Both the position numbers and the translations under genes were made by a program. The notes under the pieces were generated by a model. The model made no database searches. It saw nothing but the letters and a program-made list of their open reading frames with translations, and had not been told where the DNA came from. DNA of 11,635 bases from NCBI GenBank assembly GCA_016839585.1, contig JAEOTZ010000019.1, forward strand, positions 1 to 11,635, written 5' to 3'. Below, piece by piece: positions 2,359-11,635 of the stretch; position 1 is the first letter of the stretch; each line of letters starts with the position of its first letter. The stretch is from Promethearchaeota archaeon (GTDB lineage: Archaea; Asgardarchaeota; Lokiarchaeia; Sigyniarchaeales; SOKP01).

Positions 2359-3639
2359 TTATATCTTCAATAATGGTAAGATCTGCGGACCATTTGGTAA
2401 AATTAAAATATTTGAATTCTTTCCATGTTTTTTAAGTGATAATTGGATTGCTTCCTCAACTTTTTTTGCGTATTTTAAGCCAATATTACCCAATTCATTT
2501 TCATTTAATTTAAAAACGACGTATATTTCTGCTTTCATAAGTATTCTTGCTAAGATTTGTATCTCCCATTGATCAGGGACAATAATTTCTTTCTTTAGAA
2601 TTTTATTGTAAATATCTGCTGGTTTCATATCCGAGAAAAGTAATTCTCGAAATTCATCTTGACCTTCACCTATTCCATCACTACACTCGTTTACAGAAAT
2701 TATTGTACCACCTTCCTTTATAGCCATTTCTCCTATTGCCATGCTCTTAACTGCTTGATACAAATTGAGATCTAATGGATATCCTCCATTTCCACAGATT
2801 ACAATATCATAAGGTTCTGTAATTTCCTTAAATACTTTTTTTAATTGATATTCAACAAGTTTATTATGAGCTTTTTCCAAATCTCCAGCAGCAATTTTTG
2901 TGATTCTATGTTTTTCATCTATACATATATTAATAATAAAATCGACACCAATTAGTCTAGCTATTTCTATTGCATTTTTATGCATAGGGTTCTTTTTATA
3001 AATTCCAAATTGAGAATAGGGAGATGAAATATTTTCAGCTGAATGATTTAATTGAATTGTTTCAGCACCAGCGATACCCGGAACTAAGGATTTAGGTCCT
3101 CCAGAAAATCCAAAGAAGAAGTGAGGTTCCACATATCCAGTTAAAATTTTTACATCACTTTCATAGTAATATTTGTTAATGTAAATAGGAATATTATTTG
3201 ATGCTTTTCCTAAATATTGTAATGAGTCTTTATCTGTTGCTTTATGATCTATTACTTTTAGACGCCTTTTTAACTTATTTCCTAAAATTCTTCCTAATTC
3301 TTCTTCACGAGAGGGACGATGTAACCCAGTGGCTATTAAAACAATAATTTTTTTATCCTCAATCCCATATGAGTTTAGTTCTTCGATTAATGCTTCTATT
3401 ATCATATAGGAAGGTAGAGGTCGAGTAGCATCGCTTACAACTATGCAAATTTGATTCAAGTTTTGCTTTTCTCTAATGATCCTCTTAAGAGGGGCACATG
3501 AGATTGGATTATTTATGGCTTTTTTAATTTTTTCTACAGGATTTTCAATTATTTTTTGAGATTTTGGTTTTAAAATATCTACGTTCCAAGATGTATCTAA
3601 AGAAATTTCTAATCCAGCTTTCCCATAATCAAATTTCAT
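2359..3639 (-). CDS. larA: Nickel-pincer-nucleotide-dependent lactate racemase (LarA family)
   Basis: LarA motifs SDATRP, ATGLHR, VEPHFFFGFSGGPKSLVPG (catalytic His and cofactor-linked Lys), NHS, GGYPLDLNLYQAVK and PDQW. 426 aa is a typical length. Confidence 0.92.
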   Translation of the reverse strand: MKFDYGKAGLEISLDTSWNVDILKPKSQKIIENPVEKIKKAINNPISCAPLKRIIREKQNLNQICIVVSDATRPLPSYMIIEALIEELNSYGIEDKKIIVLIATGLHRPSREEELGRILGNKLKRRLKVIDHKATDKDSLQYLGKASNNIPIYINKYYYESDVKILTGYVEPHFFFGFSGGPKSLVPGIAGAETIQLNHSAENISSPYSQFGIYKKNPMHKNAIEIARLIGVDFIINICIDEKHRITKIAAGDLEKAHNKLVEYQLKKVFKEITEPYDIVICGNGGYPLDLNLYQAVKSMAIGEMAIKEGGTIISVNECSDGIGEGQDEFRELLFSDMKPADIYNKILKKEIIVPDQWEIQILARILMKAEIYVVFKLNENELGNIGLKYAKKVEEAIQLSLKKHGKNSNILILPNGPQILPLLKI

Positions 3640-3646
3640 AACAATT

Positions 3647-5386
3647 TCACTTTTTCTTATAAATTATTTCCCGAGCTTTCTCAAAGATTTCATATGTGTC
3701 AATCCCAGCAGGGCAGGTTGTATGACAAAGTGCACATAATGTACATGTGTTAAGAATATCTGATATTACTTCAGTTAGGTCTAATTCACCATATACTAAC
3801 CCATTTAAAATGCTCAATCGACCTCTTGGACTATAAGCTTCTAATAGATAATGGATTCTTGATGGACATGTAGCGATACAAAATCCACATCTCATACATT
3901 TTAAACTTAACAGTTTATCATTTTGGTTTTTTAACAATCGAGATTTCCTAGATTTTCTTATTGGTTGCTTTTCTCCTTTTCCAATGCCAGGATTCAAGAT
4001 TCTATTTGGATCAAAGAGTTCTTTAATTTTAATCATTATATCGATAATTTCAGATCCATGTTCTAACTCAAGATAGGGAGTTTTAATTTTACCTATTCCA
4101 TGTTCACCAGTTAGAGTACCTCCAGCAGGAATTATAATTTCTTTATATAAGAATTCAATTGCTTTTTCAAAATCTATTATATCTTGTTCATCATTTTCGT
4201 TAAATAAAAAAGTAGGATGTAAATTTCCTTCCATATGGCAAATAATAGCTACTAACAAGTTTTTTGCATTAATTTTTTCCGGTATTTTCTCAATCTTTTT
4301 TATAACCTCAGCTAAATGAGTTAACTGAACAGTACAATCTTCCACACAGGTATTTGGTCTTAATCTGGATAAAGCAGGTAAATTTGCTTTTCTTGCTAAT
4401 ATAAGCCTTTCTCTCTCTTCATTATTTTTAGCAATCTTATGATAGATTGGATTTTTTTGAATAATAATATCAAATAAGTTTGAAAAATTTTCTTCAACCT
4501 CGTTAATACTTTCTCCATCTACTTCAGCTAATAACACATATCCGTTAGGAAAATCTAAAAATTCTCCACCTAAATACTCAGTAACCGCTTTCAAAACGAG
4601 TTTATCCATAAATTCTAATAAATTAGGAACAATCCCTTCTTTACGTATTTTTAAGACAGCACTTTGCAAATCTCTAACATCCTCAAAAATAAACATACCC
4701 AATTTTCTTGCTTTAGGTAAAGGTCTAATTCTGAGACCAATCTTAGTAATAACTCCTAAAGTTCCCTCAGAACCGATGATTAAATCTTTTAAATTATAAG
4801 ATGATACAGATTTTAAAACATTTGTACCTAAATTCATAATAGTTCCATCAGGGAAGACTACTTCTAAATATAGAACGTAATTTTTTGTAACACCATATTT
4901 AAATGCCTGTATTCCTCCAGCATTAGTTGCAACCATTCCTCCTATTGTAGCAACTGAGCTTGAACCGGGATCTGGAGGAAAAAAATATCCAAGCGGCTCT
5001 AACTTTTTGTTTAAATCATCACAGATGACTCCAGGCTCAACTTCAACTAGATTATTTTCAATATCAATTTTGATGATTTTCTTTATTCTAGATAAGTCAA
5101 GAACAATTCCTCTATAAGGAGTCATAGGTCCAGCTGACAAGCTTGTCCCACTTCCTCGGGGAGTGACAGGAATTCTATATTTATTTGCTAATTTTAAAAT
5201 TTTAGAAATTTGTAAAGAATTTTGAGGTAATAAGATTAAATCAGGAATCCAATCTCTTTCAAATATCGTACCTCCAAAAGAATAAGCCCACCGAATTTCA
5301 AAGTTATCAAAACATGATTCTTCTCCTACAATTTGTTCAAACTGTGCAATTACTTGCTTTGAAATTTTATTATATTTTGGAGTCAT
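3647..5386 (-). CDS. FAD-linked oxidase (GlcD / D-lactate dehydrogenase family) fused to a C-terminal 2x[4Fe-4S] domain
   Basis: PCMH-type FAD motifs PRGSGTSLSAG, FFPPDPGSSSVATIGGMVATNAGG, KYGVTKNYV and GSEGTLGVIT. Catalytic-domain motifs GNLHP, GEHGIG and FDPNRILNPG. Then CMRCGFCIATCP and CTLCALCHTTCP. Ends 7 nt upstream of larA. Confidence 0.9.
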   Translation of the reverse strand: MTPKYNKISKQVIAQFEQIVGEESCFDNFEIRWAYSFGGTIFERDWIPDLILLPQNSLQISKILKLANKYRIPVTPRGSGTSLSAGPMTPYRGIVLDLSRIKKIIKIDIENNLVEVEPGVICDDLNKKLEPLGYFFPPDPGSSSVATIGGMVATNAGGIQAFKYGVTKNYVLYLEVVFPDGTIMNLGTNVLKSVSSYNLKDLIIGSEGTLGVITKIGLRIRPLPKARKLGMFIFEDVRDLQSAVLKIRKEGIVPNLLEFMDKLVLKAVTEYLGGEFLDFPNGYVLLAEVDGESINEVEENFSNLFDIIIQKNPIYHKIAKNNEERERLILARKANLPALSRLRPNTCVEDCTVQLTHLAEVIKKIEKIPEKINAKNLLVAIICHMEGNLHPTFLFNENDEQDIIDFEKAIEFLYKEIIIPAGGTLTGEHGIGKIKTPYLELEHGSEIIDIMIKIKELFDPNRILNPGIGKGEKQPIRKSRKSRLLKNQNDKLLSLKCMRCGFCIATCPSRIHYLLEAYSPRGRLSILNGLVYGELDLTEVISDILNTCTLCALCHTTCPAGIDTYEIFEKAREIIYKKK

Positions 5387-6517: not shown

Positions 6518-6916
6518 TTGGGAAAAAACTTAAATGATATATGGGTCTTAACGGAAAGTGGGATAACAGTATATAGTCGTGTTCTTGATCCAAGGATTAA
6601 CCCCCAACTGTTTGGAGCACTTATGAGTGCATTAAATTTATTTGCAGAAAAGCTGTCTAACGGGGGTATTACGAATTTTGAGTTAAGTAGATTACGATTT
6701 ACAATTATTAAAAAAAATCATTTTATTTTTGTAGCGAATTCATCAAATAAATCAAAAGAGAAAAAAGTTTTAAATGAATTAAGTCGAATTTCAGATAAAT
6801 TTTTTGAATTATATTCAGAAGAAGTTTTAGAGAAATGGGATAATGATATTAACATCTTCGCAAGTTTTGAAAATGAAATAAAAGACTCATTAGAAGAAAC
6901 TACAAAAAAGTTCTAA
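6518..6916 (+). CDS. Stand-alone longin/roadblock-like domain protein (Asgard type)
   Basis: 132 aa, TTG start. LNDIWVLTESGITVYSR beta-hairpin, helix PQLFGALMSALNLFAEKL, strands ITNFEL / RFTIIK / FIFVANS, helix VLNELSRISDKFFELY and a W...INIFASFENEI tail give longin-type bb-a-bbb-aa topology. Confidence 0.75.
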   Translation: MGKNLNDIWVLTESGITVYSRVLDPRINPQLFGALMSALNLFAEKLSNGGITNFELSRLRFTIIKKNHFIFVANSSNKSKEKKVLNELSRISDKFFELYSEEVLEKWDNDINIFASFENEIKDSLEETTKKF

Positions 6917-7528: not shown

Positions 7529-8995
7529 TTGATTTATGATGTTATTATTATTGGTGGTGGCGTTATTGGTTGTTGTATTGCACGTACTCTTTCAAAATAT
7601 GATTTAAAAATATGTTTATTAGAAAAGGAAGCTGAACTTGCTTCTGGAACAACAAAAGGAAATTCTGGAGTTGTTCATGCTGGATATGCCGCTCCAAGAG
7701 AATATATAAAGAGAAATCTATGTATTAGAGGAAATAAACTATACACTCAAGCAGCTGAAGAATTAAATTTTCCATTTCAAAGAATTGGATCCTTTGTGGT
7801 TGCTTTAGAAGATAGTCAAATTAAAGTATTAGAGGAGCAAAGAAGACAAGGAATACAAGATGGTATACCTGGATTAGAAGTAATTTTAGATAAAGAGAAA
7901 ATAAAATATATGGAACCTAATATAAATGATGAAGTTGTTGGTGTGCTCCACGCTCCTACTGCCGGGATTGTAAGTCCTTATGAAATGACATTTGCACTAG
8001 CTGATAATGCGGCTACGAATGGAGTAAAATTCCTTTTGAATCAAAAAGTTAGAAGGATTAAGCATCAAGATTATACTTTCACAATTAAAACAAAAACTCA
8101 AGAATTTAAATCACGTAATGTTATTAATGCTGCTGGTTTATATGCGGCAAGAATTTCTAAACTGGTAGGTCTAGATTATTTTGAAATTATGCCTAGGAGA
8201 GGGGAGTATATTTTATTTGATAGAAATGCACTTCATTTAAATAAAATATTATTTCCAACACCTACAAAAGTATCTAAAGGGATCCTAGTATGTCCAACAT
8301 TACATGAAAACACATTTGTCGGTCCTAATGCTCAAAATATTACTGATAAGAAAGATATCTCTACTACTGAAGCCGGACTAAAAGAGATTTTGGAAGCTGG
8401 TAGAAAATTAGTGCCAAATTTACCTGTAAGAAGTTCAATTAGAAATTTTGCTGGATTAAGAGCAGTTCCTGATACTTATGATTTTATTATTGATAATACT
8501 GATATTTATGGTTTTATTAATATTGCTGGAATCTTATCACCAGGATTAACCTCTTGTTTTGCAATAGCGGAAAAAGTTGTAGAATTCCTTGAATTATTAG
8601 GAGTAGAATTAAAAATTAAAGAAGATTACAATCCAAGGCGTCTAAAACCAGAGAGATTTAAAGATTTTTCAAAAGAAGAACTTGATCAGAAAATTAAGGA
8701 AGATCCATCATGGGGGAGAATTATATGTCGATGTGAGACAATCCCAGAGAAAGAGATTATTAATGCAATTCATGCTCCAGTAGGAGCAACTACTGTAGAC
8801 GGCATAAAATTCAGATGTAGACCTGGCATGGGACGTTGTCAAGGTGGTTTTTGTCGACCTCGTGTAATAGAAATTCTCTCACGTGAGTTAAACATTCCCT
8901 ATGAAGAAGTAACAAAAAGAGGTGAAGACACTAACTTTTTAATAGCTAAAACTAAAGATTTAACGCTTAAGGAAATAGAAGGAGGTACCGAGTAA
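7529..8995 (+). CDS. GlpA-like FAD-dependent glycerol-3-phosphate dehydrogenase / LhgO-DAO family oxidoreductase with a C-terminal BFD-like [2Fe-2S] domain
   Basis: YDVIIIGGGVIG dinucleotide fold, GTTKGNSGVVHAG, VINAAGLYA, PRRGEY, FAGLRA and GILSPGLTS. C-terminal ICRCE...CRPGMGRCQGGFC cluster motif. TTG start. Confidence 0.85.
   Translation: MIYDVIIIGGGVIGCCIARTLSKYDLKICLLEKEAELASGTTKGNSGVVHAGYAAPREYIKRNLCIRGNKLYTQAAEELNFPFQRIGSFVVALEDSQIKVLEEQRRQGIQDGIPGLEVILDKEKIKYMEPNINDEVVGVLHAPTAGIVSPYEMTFALADNAATNGVKFLLNQKVRRIKHQDYTFTIKTKTQEFKSRNVINAAGLYAARISKLVGLDYFEIMPRRGEYILFDRNALHLNKILFPTPTKVSKGILVCPTLHENTFVGPNAQNITDKKDISTTEAGLKEILEAGRKLVPNLPVRSSIRNFAGLRAVPDTYDFIIDNTDIYGFINIAGILSPGLTSCFAIAEKVVEFLELLGVELKIKEDYNPRRLKPERFKDFSKEELDQKIKEDPSWGRIICRCETIPEKEIINAIHAPVGATTVDGIKFRCRPGMGRCQGGFCRPRVIEILSRELNIPYEEVTKRGEDTNFLIAKTKDLTLKEIEGGTE
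8981..8986 (+). promoter_or_regulatory. Shine-Dalgarno sequence for the 8995 gene
   Basis: GGAGGT 8 nt upstream of the ATG, which overlaps the upstream stop (TAATG at 8993-8997), indicating translational coupling. Confidence 0.75.
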
Positions 8996-10293
8996 TGAAA
9001 CAGTATAATGCAGATGTGATTGTTATTGGATCAGGTGCTGCGGGTTTAGCAGCAGCAATAGAGGTTAAAAAAGCAAACTTAAGTGTTTTAGTTATAGAAA
9101 GAGATAAAGAACTAGGGGGAATCACCTTACAATGTATTCATAATGGATTCGGATTAAAAGAATTTGAAGAGGAATTAACTGGTCCCGAATATATCCAAAG
9201 ATTTATAAATCAAATTAAAGAATTAGAAATTCCTTATATATTAAATACAATGGTTATTGAGATTTCCAATGATAAAAAACTATATGCTGTTAATAATGAG
9301 GATGGTCTTATTGAAATAAAAGCGAAAGCAATAATTTTAGCGATGGGATGTCGTGAAAGAACAAGGGGAGCAATAAATATACCAGGATTTAGACCCGCAG
9401 GAATATATACAGCAGGTCAAGCTCAAAGATTTGTAAATATTGAAGGATATTTACCAGGCAATACCTTTGTTATTTTAGGAAGTGGAGATATAGGCATGAT
9501 TATGGCAAGAAGATTAACATGGGAGGGCTGTAAAGTTAAAGCTGTAGTTGAAATCTTACCTTACGTGAGCGGATTACTAAGAAATCAAGTCCAGTGTTTG
9601 GAAGATTATGATATTCCGCTTATTACTAGCTATACAGTGACTAAAATTCATGGGAGAGACAGAGTGAAAGGGGTTACAATCTCTAAGGTTGACAGAAATT
9701 TTGATAGAATCATTGGTTCAGATAAATTTATTGAATGTGATACTTTGCTCTTGTCCGTAGGATTAATTCCTGAAAATGAACTTACTTTAAATGCTGGAGC
9801 AGAACTATCCAAAAATGGAGGTCCTGTTGTTGATAACAATTTAGAAACTACGATTGCGGGAATTTTTACTTGTGGAAATGTTTTACAGGTTCATGATTTA
9901 GTTGATTTAGTAAGTGCAGAAGCAAAGAGAGCTGGTCAAAATGCTGTAGAATATGTTAAAAATAGATATGATAAAAAATCAAGTAAAAAAGAGATAATTA
10001 AATGTTTATCAGGAGAAAATGTCAATTATGTTAAACCCGATCGTATAAATAAAAGAGATTTGTCGAAAGATATAATATTTACGTTAAGAGTGAATTATCC
10101 TGATAGAAGAGTACTTATTCAGTTAAAGGATAATAATAACAATCTAATATATAAAAGAAAGAAAATTTACGTAATTCCTAGTGAAATGGTTGAATTAATT
10201 GTTAATTTAGAGAAAAATGGGATAGATCCTAAATGTAAATCAATTAATATTGAAGTAATACCTCGGCCAGAGGTACTAATTGAAGAGGAGTGA
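8995..10293 (+). CDS. FAD/NAD(P)-dependent oxidoreductase (pyridine nucleotide-disulfide family), partner subunit of the GlpA-like enzyme
   Basis: DVIVIGSGAAGLAAA, LGGITLQCIHNGFGL, ELTGPEY, AMGCRERTRG, second Rossmann motif VILGSGDIG, CDTLLLSVGLIPENEL and CGNVLQVHDLVD. This family typically sits between GlpA-like and DUF1667 genes. Confidence 0.85.
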   Translation: MKQYNADVIVIGSGAAGLAAAIEVKKANLSVLVIERDKELGGITLQCIHNGFGLKEFEEELTGPEYIQRFINQIKELEIPYILNTMVIEISNDKKLYAVNNEDGLIEIKAKAIILAMGCRERTRGAINIPGFRPAGIYTAGQAQRFVNIEGYLPGNTFVILGSGDIGMIMARRLTWEGCKVKAVVEILPYVSGLLRNQVQCLEDYDIPLITSYTVTKIHGRDRVKGVTISKVDRNFDRIIGSDKFIECDTLLLSVGLIPENELTLNAGAELSKNGGPVVDNNLETTIAGIFTCGNVLQVHDLVDLVSAEAKRAGQNAVEYVKNRYDKKSSKKEIIKCLSGENVNYVKPDRINKRDLSKDIIFTLRVNYPDRRVLIQLKDNNNNLIYKRKKIYVIPSEMVELIVNLEKNGIDPKCKSINIEVIPRPEVLIEEE

Positions 10294-10301
10294 TATTAAA
10301 C

Positions 10302-10688
10302 TTGTCAGAAAGTAGTCAAAGTATAGTAAAAGTAATAAGATGTATAGTTTGTCCAACTGGTTGTGAAATTCAAGCAAAAAAAAATCCAAAAGGTCAAATT
10401 TCATTTGAGGGTTATACTTGTGAAAGAGGGTTGGAATATGCAGAACAAGAGTTTTATGAACCAAAAAGGATTCTTACAACTACTATGCGGGTTGAGAATG
10501 GATTATTACCTTTAATTCCAGTAAGATCAGATAAACCTATCTTAAAAGATAAATTAAAAGATGTATTAAAGGAAATTGCAAAGATTAAAATAAAAGCGCC
10601 AATTCAAATGGGCGATGTGTTAATAGAAAATATCCTAGAATTAGGAGCAAATGTTATCGCAAGTCGTAATTTAATTAAAATAAGTTAA
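10302..10688 (+). CDS. DUF1667 family CxxC small metal/Fe-S-binding protein
   Basis: CIVCPTGC...GYTCERG..YAEQE...PKRILTTT...PVRSDKPI...APIQMGDVLIENIL..GANVIASR. TTG at 10302 preferred because GGAGTGA (10287-10293) lies 8 nt upstream; the track's GTG at 10290 is the alternative. Confidence 0.85.
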   Translation: MSESSQSIVKVIRCIVCPTGCEIQAKKNPKGQISFEGYTCERGLEYAEQEFYEPKRILTTTMRVENGLLPLIPVRSDKPILKDKLKDVLKEIAKIKIKAPIQMGDVLIENILELGANVIASRNLIKIS

Positions 10689-10716: not shown

Positions 10717-11172
10717 ATGACAGAAATGGATCAAATCTATAAGGTTCATGATAACTTGTACATCGGTGCATATTGGCCAAGGTTAAATTTTGAAAAATTT
10801 AAAAAAATTGGCATTACGGCTATTGTCAATTTAATGGAAGAGAATCTTTATAATCCTACACCTCAAGGTTTTTTTTATTTGCATAAAGGATTTCCAGATG
10901 ATTGGTATCCTCCTCATGAATATCTTGAAGAAATTCTCTCGTTTATTGATAAACATATAAAAACTGGAAAAATATTAGTCCATTGCTCAATGGGGGTTTC
11001 TAGAAGTGGGGGAATTATTGTTGCATGGCTATTAAAGGAAAATCCAGGTTGGAGTTGGAATGATGCTCTAAAGTATGTAAAAAAATCAAGATTGATATAT
11101 CCCGCAATAGAAATAAAACAATCTATATTGGATTATTTAGAATCAAGGGAAGGATACAGAAGATCTGATTAA
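10717..11172 (+). CDS. Dual-specificity (Cys-based PTP superfamily) phosphatase
   Basis: P-loop ILVHCSMGVSRSG (HCxxGxxRS), N-terminal DNLYIGA, GITAIVNL, general-acid loop FPDD, and C-terminal ALKYVKKSR..IYP. Confidence 0.92.
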   Translation: MTEMDQIYKVHDNLYIGAYWPRLNFEKFKKIGITAIVNLMEENLYNPTPQGFFYLHKGFPDDWYPPHEYLEEILSFIDKHIKTGKILVHCSMGVSRSGGIIVAWLLKENPGWSWNDALKYVKKSRLIYPAIEIKQSILDYLESREGYRRSD

Positions 11173-11267: not shown

Positions 11268-11635
11268 TTAACTCGGGGAGAGTACTCCTGCGAAGACAAA
11301 CCATGCAAGAAATGTCTTAGCGAATAAACTTAGTAACTGATACACCCTTTCTCCATATAGATAATCTTTCCATTTTCCTACACCTTTATATTGAAGAACC
11401 ATGTTAATAGCAAATGTATTAAAGAAAAATAGTTCAATTCCATAAATCCAATAAACAAACCAAGGAATTTCTCCTCCAATTGTCTGCGTACTAAGGAAAT
11501 AACTTGTTATAACAATCCAAGGTACAGCACCAATAATACATCCAAGTATAAAGGGAGTCCATTTTATTTTCTCATTGTTTTCCCGAGTATAAACATTATA
11601 TAGTTCCATCATTAAACCGAACATATTCATCATCG
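11268..11635 (-). CDS. Heliorhodopsin (HeR), 3' half: end of helix D to helix G; 5' part lies outside the window
   Basis: HeR motifs MNMFGLMME, G.VPW, PWFVY, FFNTFAINMVLQYKGVGKWKDYLYGERVY and SLFAK (SxxxK with the retinal-binding Lys, codon 11316-11318), followed by LAW. The frame is open to the window edge. Confidence 0.93.
   Translation of the reverse strand, partial: MMNMFGLMMELYNVYTRENNEKIKWTPFILGCIIGAVPWIVITSYFLSTQTIGGEIPWFVYWIYGIELFFFNTFAINMVLQYKGVGKWKDYLYGERVYQLLSLFAKTFLAWFVFAGVLSPS

Follow-up and report, generated by a model that had tools for sequence, protein, structure and literature searches.

The locus considered here raises the question of whether a glutamate within helix F of an archaeal heliorhodopsin (HeR) is a sign of proton transport. 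The gene runs off the end of a stretch of 11,635 nucleotides (hereafter 'the window', that is, the whole stretch of DNA that was analysed) from a Promethearchaeota archaeon (GenBank assembly GCA_016839585.1, contig JAEOTZ010000019.1). The function of HeRs is largely open, and only one viral/algal branch of the family is known to move ions, in a manner that depends on a Glu at the very same position; an earlier note on this DNA had proposed that the window protein may likewise conduct protons. The evidence collected so far favours the ordinary reading over that of a new transporter: we are dealing with a known family and a known kind of substitution, found in a lineage and an architecture for which it seems to be undescribed.

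It is then of importance to establish that the gene is intact. The window constitutes a complete contig (C91) in which the HeR frame, comprising 121 codons and ending with TAA, is open at the contig end. The Pfam family Heliorhodopsin (PF18761; curated cut-off 26.7 bits) matches this frame with 152 bits (E 2e-44) at profile positions 130-242. The full gene, retrieval of which the earlier note had advised, could be assembled: a same-genome family search located the N-terminal half at G000:C5:3-455 (-), a frame of 151 codons which is open at the beginning of contig C5 and matches PF18761 with 127.8 bits at profile positions 1-125 (G000:C5:3-389, -). Two close relatives, L006 (97% protein identity) and L007 (92%), possess an uninterrupted HeR gene and both span the junction; when aligned to them, the ends of C5 and C91 are 8 nt apart. 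We infer that these 8 nt complete the two split codons, beginning with AT and ending with CG, respectively, around M-A-N-A of the full-length relative P0003, which is 100% identical to the window protein over the fragment and serves as numbering reference. The flanks are likewise the same in L006 and L007: the gene for a Zn-ribbon protein lies on the C5 side, and those for a dual-specificity phosphatase and DUF1667 lie on the C91 side. The uninterrupted genes of the relatives, the 8-nt junction gap and the matching flanks indicate that the HeR gene is intact, single-copy and ∼276 codons long, and that the split is one of assembly only. The features located in the window are collected in Table 1.

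Table 1. Features of the heliorhodopsin gene and its convergent neighbour, with positions in the window.
Feature	Position	Strand	Basis
3' part of the HeR gene (helix D end to C-terminus), stop codon and 2 nt of a split codon	11268..11635	-	translation, PF18761
Helix-F Glu, codon GAA (ttc on the + strand), E224 of P0003	11433..11435	-	alignments; clade-invariant
Helix-E Thr, codon ACA, T200 of P0003 = 48C12 L177	11505..11507	-	co-fixed with the Glu; candidate hydrogen-bond partner
Retinal Schiff-base Lys, codon AAG, K263 of P0003 = 48C12 K241, in SLFAK	11316..11318	-	alignment
Gln in YQLLS, codon CAG = 48C12 I234 = Cv06 Q291	11337..11339	-	alignment; 30/41 clade members
Conserved Schiff-base-cavity Glu, codon GAA = 48C12 E230 = V2HeR3 E215	11349..11351	-	alignment
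Phe in AWF, codon TTT = 48C12 Q247	11298..11300	-	alignment
Dual-specificity protein phosphatase (DSPc, HCxxGxxRS), convergent neighbour	10717..11172	+	Pfam PF00782, E 1e-18

Both halves of the protein exhibit the residues expected of the family. The window frame holds VYWIYGIELFFFNTFAINM, YQLLS, the Schiff-base lysine in SLFAK, and AWF, so that the Glu codon and all motifs quoted by the earlier note were found in the translation, and its LLSLFAK, which contains the SxxxK motif with the Schiff-base Lys, is aligned to LSLVAK of 48C12 and TaHeR. The half on contig C5 (P0002) provides the counterion Glu of helix C in RWFEY (48C12 E107), the possible absence of which had been named as an argument against proton conduction, as well as both cavity His (48C12 H23 and H80) in LHLIQ and AIAHL; equivalents of 48C12 E149 and E230 are both present in the HeR halves. 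The AF2 model, which was obtained for the full-length relative P0003 and not for the split gene itself, has a pLDDT of 91 and comprises seven helices and strands at 51-82. Its top Foldseek matches are all HeRs, with a TM score of 0.92 and an r.m.s.d. of 1.6 Å for TaHeR. Judged by homology, the window protein is a heliorhodopsin (type-3 rhodopsin) of a Lokiarchaeial (Promethearchaeota) genome; its identification as an Asgard HeR was correct in view of the PF18761 match and of the nearest genomes, which are labelled Promethearchaeota.

In HMMER alignments free of gaps within helix F, the window Glu is paired with 48C12 L202 (K241 serving as the anchor for the numbering), TaHeR chain residue 205, and Cv06 Y250. 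TaHeR chain residue 205 is I199 of the literature, the offset of 6 being verified on E108, E150, N204, E227 and K238, and Kornilov et al. have independently equated 48C12 L202, TaHeR I199 and Cv06 Y250 as a retinal-pocket position. In TaHeR, I199 and the retinal sandwich F203 (PMC9448325). For V2HeR3, Hososhima et al. (PMC9448325) equate E191 with TaHeR I199, W195 with TaHeR F203, E205 with TaHeR Q213 / 48C12 Q216, and E215 with E227 / E230, respectively. The local sequence of V2HeR3, which we took from the published mutagenesis primers, reads E191-F-G-L-W195 with 14 residues to E205, and the window reads E-L-F-F-F with 14 residues to a Gln; the invariant Phe and SxxxK are in register between the two. 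Going by these alignments, the window Glu is at the position of V2HeR3 E191, the residue needed for viral proton transport. The assignment to 48C12 L202 and to the first V2HeR3 Glu, which had been made in the earlier note, is thus borne out by the gapless HMMER alignments, by PMC9448325 and by the primer-derived sequence, and alignment with 48C12, TaHeR and Cv06 places the Glu in the retinal pocket instead of at a lipid-facing or loop position. The accompanying proposal of an Asn at the second V2HeR3 Glu position has to be corrected: E205 is equivalent to 48C12 Q216 and thus to the family-consensus Gln of the window's VLQYK. Equating V2HeR3 E236 with 48C12 Q247 was considered and rejected as well; given the shorter F-G loop, E236 corresponds to 48C12 G251, i.e., to the Gly in FAGV of the window.

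Two residues of helix G had also been singled out in the earlier note, and both can be explained in ordinary terms. The Gln in YQLLS matches Cv06 Q291, which according to the Cv06 structure paper (bioRxiv 10.1101/2025.11.27.691015) merely hydrogen-bonds the conserved cavity Glu (E287/E230). The Phe replacing Q247 is common to the neighbouring Tyr- and Gln-type archaeal clades. In 48C12, Q247 pairs with S201 on the outer protein surface, and in the window both partners are hydrophobic (Phe and Ile, respectively), as in all Tyr-, Gln- and Glu-type relatives. The Phe thus represents the loss of this surface pair, and not a channel feature.

The helix-F Glu is found in all 41 of the closest 90%-identity clusters, the pairwise identities of which extend down to 59% and among which only 36% of the columns are invariant, so that a substitution by chance can be dismissed. 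The other sequences among the best 120 full-length relatives have Tyr (35), Ile (25), Gln (9), Leu (8) or Met (2) instead. In the tree of relatives, the Glu bearers form one monophyletic clade with a support of 100 and a long stem, the sister of which is represented by Tyr/Gln-type HeRs of Bathyarchaeia and Methanobacteriaceae (loci L039-L085). A Gln is nested inside the Glu clade (P0044/L038; GAA to CAA), with P0044 being sister to a Glu-bearing sequence; at the level of species representatives, 32 of the 33 Loki-type loci (L006-L038) encode Glu, L038 with its CAA being the exception. These loci are mostly labelled Promethearchaeota, while a few bear other Asgard labels, and one of them, L034 (DATKTW010000016.1; 69% identity), is labelled Candidatus Nanopelagicaceae bacterium and is probably a mis-binned archaeal contig carrying a Loki-type Glu HeR. 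HeR genes occur in 78 of the 138 genomes sampled from the class and are nearly always single-copy. Because the Glu is strongly conserved in more than 30 species, it would appear to have a specific function that is not fully replaced by Tyr, Gln or Ile, as such conservation implies.

Across the entire family, the residue at position 202 is L, Y, I, M, E, T or Q. Glu is present in ∼6% of 150 diverse 50%-identity representatives, which belong to several unrelated lineages, and on the sampled tree Glu must have been gained or lost about 7 times or more. Kovalev et al. (2020) reported Glu202 for viral subfamily 2 and eukaryotic U8 only, and a conserved Tyr202 for archaeal subfamilies 7-9, with Asgard members in subfamily 7. 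In the literature searched, we found neither a description of a Lokiarchaeial HeR with this Glu nor a characterised member of the Glu clade. Hence, the substitution itself is already known, and the Lokiarchaeial clade in which it is fixed appears, as far as that literature goes, to be undescribed. Two distant Asgard HeRs at 52-54% identity, L053 (Heimdallarchaeota YT1_002) and L073, have Glu or Gln at the helix-F position and also Ser at the helix-E position discussed below; the polar pair may have arisen there a second time.

When the alignment was scanned for columns specific to the clade, T200 in helix E (48C12 L177) stood out: each of the 41 clade members has Thr here, and the residue is hydrophobic elsewhere. 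The species between them use all four ACN codons for it, a synonymous turnover from which it follows that the Thr is under selection. In the AF2 model of P0003, in which helix E spans residues 183-209 and helix F residues 215-240, T200 and E224 are each located nine residues from the short extracellular E-F loop, and in both cases an aromatic residue that faces the pocket follows four residues further inward (W196 for T200, F228 for E224). A hydrogen bond between T200 and E224 is plausible in this model, since the two residues are at the same depth of adjacent antiparallel helices. The pairing may also be one of simple co-inheritance: Thr accompanies Glu in 43 of 47 Glu rows, but once the association of Glu/Gln at 224 with Thr/Ser at 200 is corrected for phylogeny, only 5 independent contrasts are left and the sign test is not significant.

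As to the supply of the chromophore, a search of the genome for genes of retinal or carotenoid synthesis, which the earlier note had likewise advised, returned none: neither a Blh-type dioxygenase above cut-off, nor a phytoene synthase, nor an RPE65-type oxygenase was found in this 99%-complete genome. Retinal must thus come from outside, which fits ideas of exogenous chromophores put forward in the literature (preprint). No type-1 rhodopsin was found in the window's own genome either. Short type-1 rhodopsin genes (∼205-220 aa, schizorhodopsin-like in size) are present in 11 of 138 related genomes (L093-L095 and eight others).

The gene neighbourhood was inspected for a partner that might support a sensory relay, and among the loci examined none is conserved clade-wide. 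The candidate arrangement, i.e., synteny of the Zn-ribbon, HeR, DSP phosphatase and DUF1667 genes, was rejected on this account as it is restricted to L006, L007 and L038; the HeR neighbours in other subclades are DUF1761, a Redoxin-like ORF, an ARPP-1 protein together with an ArsR-type regulator, or an ATP10-like protein. Since no neighbour is conserved across the clade, the genomic context yields no functional clue. The individual neighbours may nevertheless be recorded. The DSPc phosphatase (active-site loop HCSMGVSRSG) is convergent with HeR at 95 nt from the HeR stop, a pairing seen only in L006, L007 and L038. It is preceded by a three-gene operon (window 7529-10688, +) encoding a DAO FAD oxidoreductase with a BFD-like 2Fe-2S domain, a Pyr_redox_2 flavoprotein and DUF1667, which is kept beside HeR in L006, L007, L036, L038 and L046 and resembles anaerobic glycerol-3-phosphate or opine-type dehydrogenase clusters. 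Farther away, window 6518-6916 (+) encodes a 132-aa protein with a weak match, just below cut-off, to the FUZ/MON1/HPS1 first longin domain (E 1.5e-5), that is, a eukaryote-signature type typical of Asgard archaea, and window 2359-5386 (-) encodes a homologue of the lactate racemase LarA and, after it, an FAD-linked oxidase that carries a fused 4Fe-4S dicluster domain, a pair which likely serves lactate/2-hydroxyacid utilisation. On contig C5 (L004), a divergent protein of 117 aa, the C-terminal part of which contains a CPxCG...CxxCG zinc ribbon (611-964, +), is kept in L006, L007, L036 and L038 and is followed by a radical-SAM-like gene (1122-1889, +). In L013-L018, a DUF1761 membrane protein is encoded on the same strand about 125 nt upstream of HeR, and in L009-L018 and L037 a divergent Redoxin/AhpC-like ORF of ∼90 aa, possibly cut at an in-frame UGA, is located 411-983 nt upstream of HeR.

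Based on this evidence, we consider it probable that the window protein is a non-transporting photosensory HeR in which a protonated Glu tunes the retinal pocket. The protein would be a slow-cycling retinal photoreceptor acting on partner proteins, and may bear a carotenoid antenna. The Glu belongs to the pocket of the retinal, where it occupies the extracellular side of helix F at one turn's distance from the Phe in contact with the retinal; it would be buried and protonated there, and hydrogen-bonded to the co-fixed helix-E Thr or to water. Its job could then be that of the Tyr or Gln in the sister archaeal HeRs, namely to tune colour and photocycle, or to relay the isomerisation of retinal. 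Several observations are consistent with such a role: (i) the window HeR is nested among archaeal non-viral HeRs, outside the viral/algal clade (subfamily 2 of Kovalev et al.), (ii) the carotenoid-site motif of 48C12 (F162/C166/G169/F206/A210) is complete (F185/C189/G192/F228/A232), whereas viral subfamily 2, including the tested transporters, is reported to be devoid of it (preprint), (iii) the positions of 48C12 L73, V69, I116 and L253, which are charged in other HeR groups, are hydrophobic, and (iv) Cv06, which has Tyr at the Glu site, exhibited no transport in BLM (bioRxiv 10.1101/2025.11.27.691015).

The foremost competing explanation, which we regard as rather unlikely, is that of a proton transporter on the V2HeR3 model, either light-gated or light-driven. 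In this case, the helix-F Glu would be protonated in the dark, deprotonate when the gate opens, and serve as a relay for protons between Schiff base and extracellular side, with the conserved Q238/E252 pair representing the proton-accepting group on the cytoplasmic side. One argument in its favour also counts against the sensory reading: by alignment, the Glu is exactly the hallmark of, and the prerequisite for, proton transport by HeRs, being present at the E191 position of all transporting HeRs tested (PMC9448325). It is fixed throughout the clade along with a helix-E Thr at equal depth, and helices E and F have more hydroxyl residues at their extracellular ends (T200, S201, Y202, S205, Y218, Y221) than those of TaHeR, and thus leave room for a proton path. 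The Gln and Glu at the E/Q205 and E215 positions (Q238, E252) are likewise as in the transporters; however, they are the consensus of the whole HeR family and thus do not discriminate. Finally, inward proton-pumping schizorhodopsins are reported to exist in Asgard archaea already (PMC7148096).

On the other hand, the Glu is essential but not sufficient, as EhHeR and McHeR carry it and did not transport when tested (PMC9448325). W195 has been named as a further requirement for transport by V2HeR3 (PMC9448325), and at this position (that of BR W182, the proposed gate together with E191) the window has Phe, as do 118 of 120 relatives. Moreover, helix G terminates on the outside in the hydrophobic FAGV where V2HeR3 has N234-S235-E236-N237. 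The hallmark Glu on which the earlier note built its proposal of a proton-conducting HeR thus stands, while its sufficiency does not, and further features of V2HeR3 argue against the proposal, with W195 and the polar helix-G exit missing and the full fenestration motif kept, unlike in viral subfamily 2. Placement of the clade among archaeal non-viral HeRs points in the same direction, and so does the natural change from Glu to Gln inside the clade, given that E191Q abolishes the current of V2HeR3 while the pigment is retained (PMC9448325). A passive inward proton leak would also waste the proton-motive force of the cell. A complementary distribution of HeR and schizorhodopsin was considered and rejected: 9 of the 11 genomes bearing schizorhodopsin-like genes also have HeR, i.e., the two co-occur and do not replace each other. 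That the Glu-type HeRs, which most Lokiarchaeial genomes possess, are as a group light-driven or light-gated proton transporters that use the E191-equivalent Glu and in which the helix-E Thr replaces the viral Trp gate is, in our view, unlikely. If this were nonetheless true, prokaryotes would thereby have their first ion-transporting HeRs, and Asgard archaea a second rhodopsin system for proton transport beside the schizorhodopsins.

A further explanation, which seems very unlikely, assigns the Glu/Thr pair to ligand handling at the lateral fenestration, where it would contact the polar ring of an exogenous xanthophyll antenna or aid the uptake of exogenous retinal, the organism being unable to make either. 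With homologues of Blh, phytoene synthase and RPE65 not found in a genome that is 99% complete, the chromophore has to be taken up from outside; the fenestration/carotenoid-site motif has all its residues, and the Glu is one turn from F228 in the fenestration wall and next to L225, the equivalent of the F203 which narrows the fenestration in 48C12. However, the helix depth predicted by the model places the Glu approximately one turn extracellular of the fenestration, facing the retinal pocket instead of the surface, and the binding of carotenoids by any HeR is a matter of docking only (preprint). That the Glu has no role of its own, and has been passed on by descent as a neutral change which the protein tolerates, is hardly credible in spite of the variability of position 202 and the repeated changes to and from Glu within the family, considering its invariance across the 41 clusters of limited overall conservation, the cost of a buried carboxyl group in a hydrophobic half unless it is used, and the synonymous codon turnover of the co-fixed Thr.

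Quite apart from the role eventually assigned to the Glu, a large and coherent archaeal clade is thereby defined which combines it with an otherwise TaHeR-like, fenestrated architecture. With this clade, nature offers a clean test: either the Glu can open a proton path by itself, or it is a pocket-tuning residue interchangeable with Tyr or Gln. Either outcome will sharpen the rules that relate structure to function in HeRs, and there is a bearing, too, on the question of why sediment-dwelling Asgard archaea lacking retinal synthesis keep a light receptor.

Comparison with known systems places the sensory reading favoured here in context. The best solved relative is TaHeR of Thermoplasmatales archaeon SG8-52-1 (PDB 6IS6, 7U55; E 5e-58, ∼46% identity), which shares with the window HeR the counterion, both His, SxxxK and the fenestration residues, as well as Met at the position of 48C12 Q213, Asn at that of I142, and Phe at the BR-W182 position. 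The two proteins differ in that TaHeR has Ile199 in place of the Glu, Phe in place of T200 and Ile in place of the Gln in YQLLS, keeps the Ser/Gln surface pair (48C12 S201/Q247) where the window has Ile and Phe, and is devoid of the insert by which the window protein's D-E loop is 4 residues longer. Features common to the window HeR and V2HeR3 of Emiliania huxleyi virus 202 (PMC9448325) are the helix-F Glu (E191), the cavity Glu (E215) and the counterion Glu. Unlike the window HeR, V2HeR3 has Trp195 instead of Phe, Glu205 instead of Gln, and Ile at the conserved fenestration Asn, and it alone possesses the polar N-S-E-N end of helix G (F-A-G-V in the window), Glu165 in helix E, and the shorter F-G loop; it also belongs to the viral/algal subfamily reported without the carotenoid site, whereas the window protein is nested within the archaeal HeRs. 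The Glu+Trp pattern of V2HeR3 is absent from the 7 HeR loci found in viral contigs.

Cv06 of Chromera velia (PDB 9VFC) is comparable to the window HeR in having a polar residue at position 202, Gln at that of I234, and Leu/Phe for Q247. It differs by its Tyr in place of the Glu and by being a eukaryotic protein with a long N-terminus and a long insert in the F-G loop, and it is non-transporting in BLM. Lastly, the Tyr202-type archaeal HeRs (subfamilies 7-9 of Kovalev et al. 2020), represented here by the sister loci of Bathyarchaeia and Methanobacteriaceae, likewise exhibit a polar residue at position 202, Leu/Phe/Ile at Q247 and Met at Q213, and are distinguished from the window HeR by Tyr/Gln in place of the Glu and by Ala/Phe/Tyr/Leu in place of the Thr at position 200.
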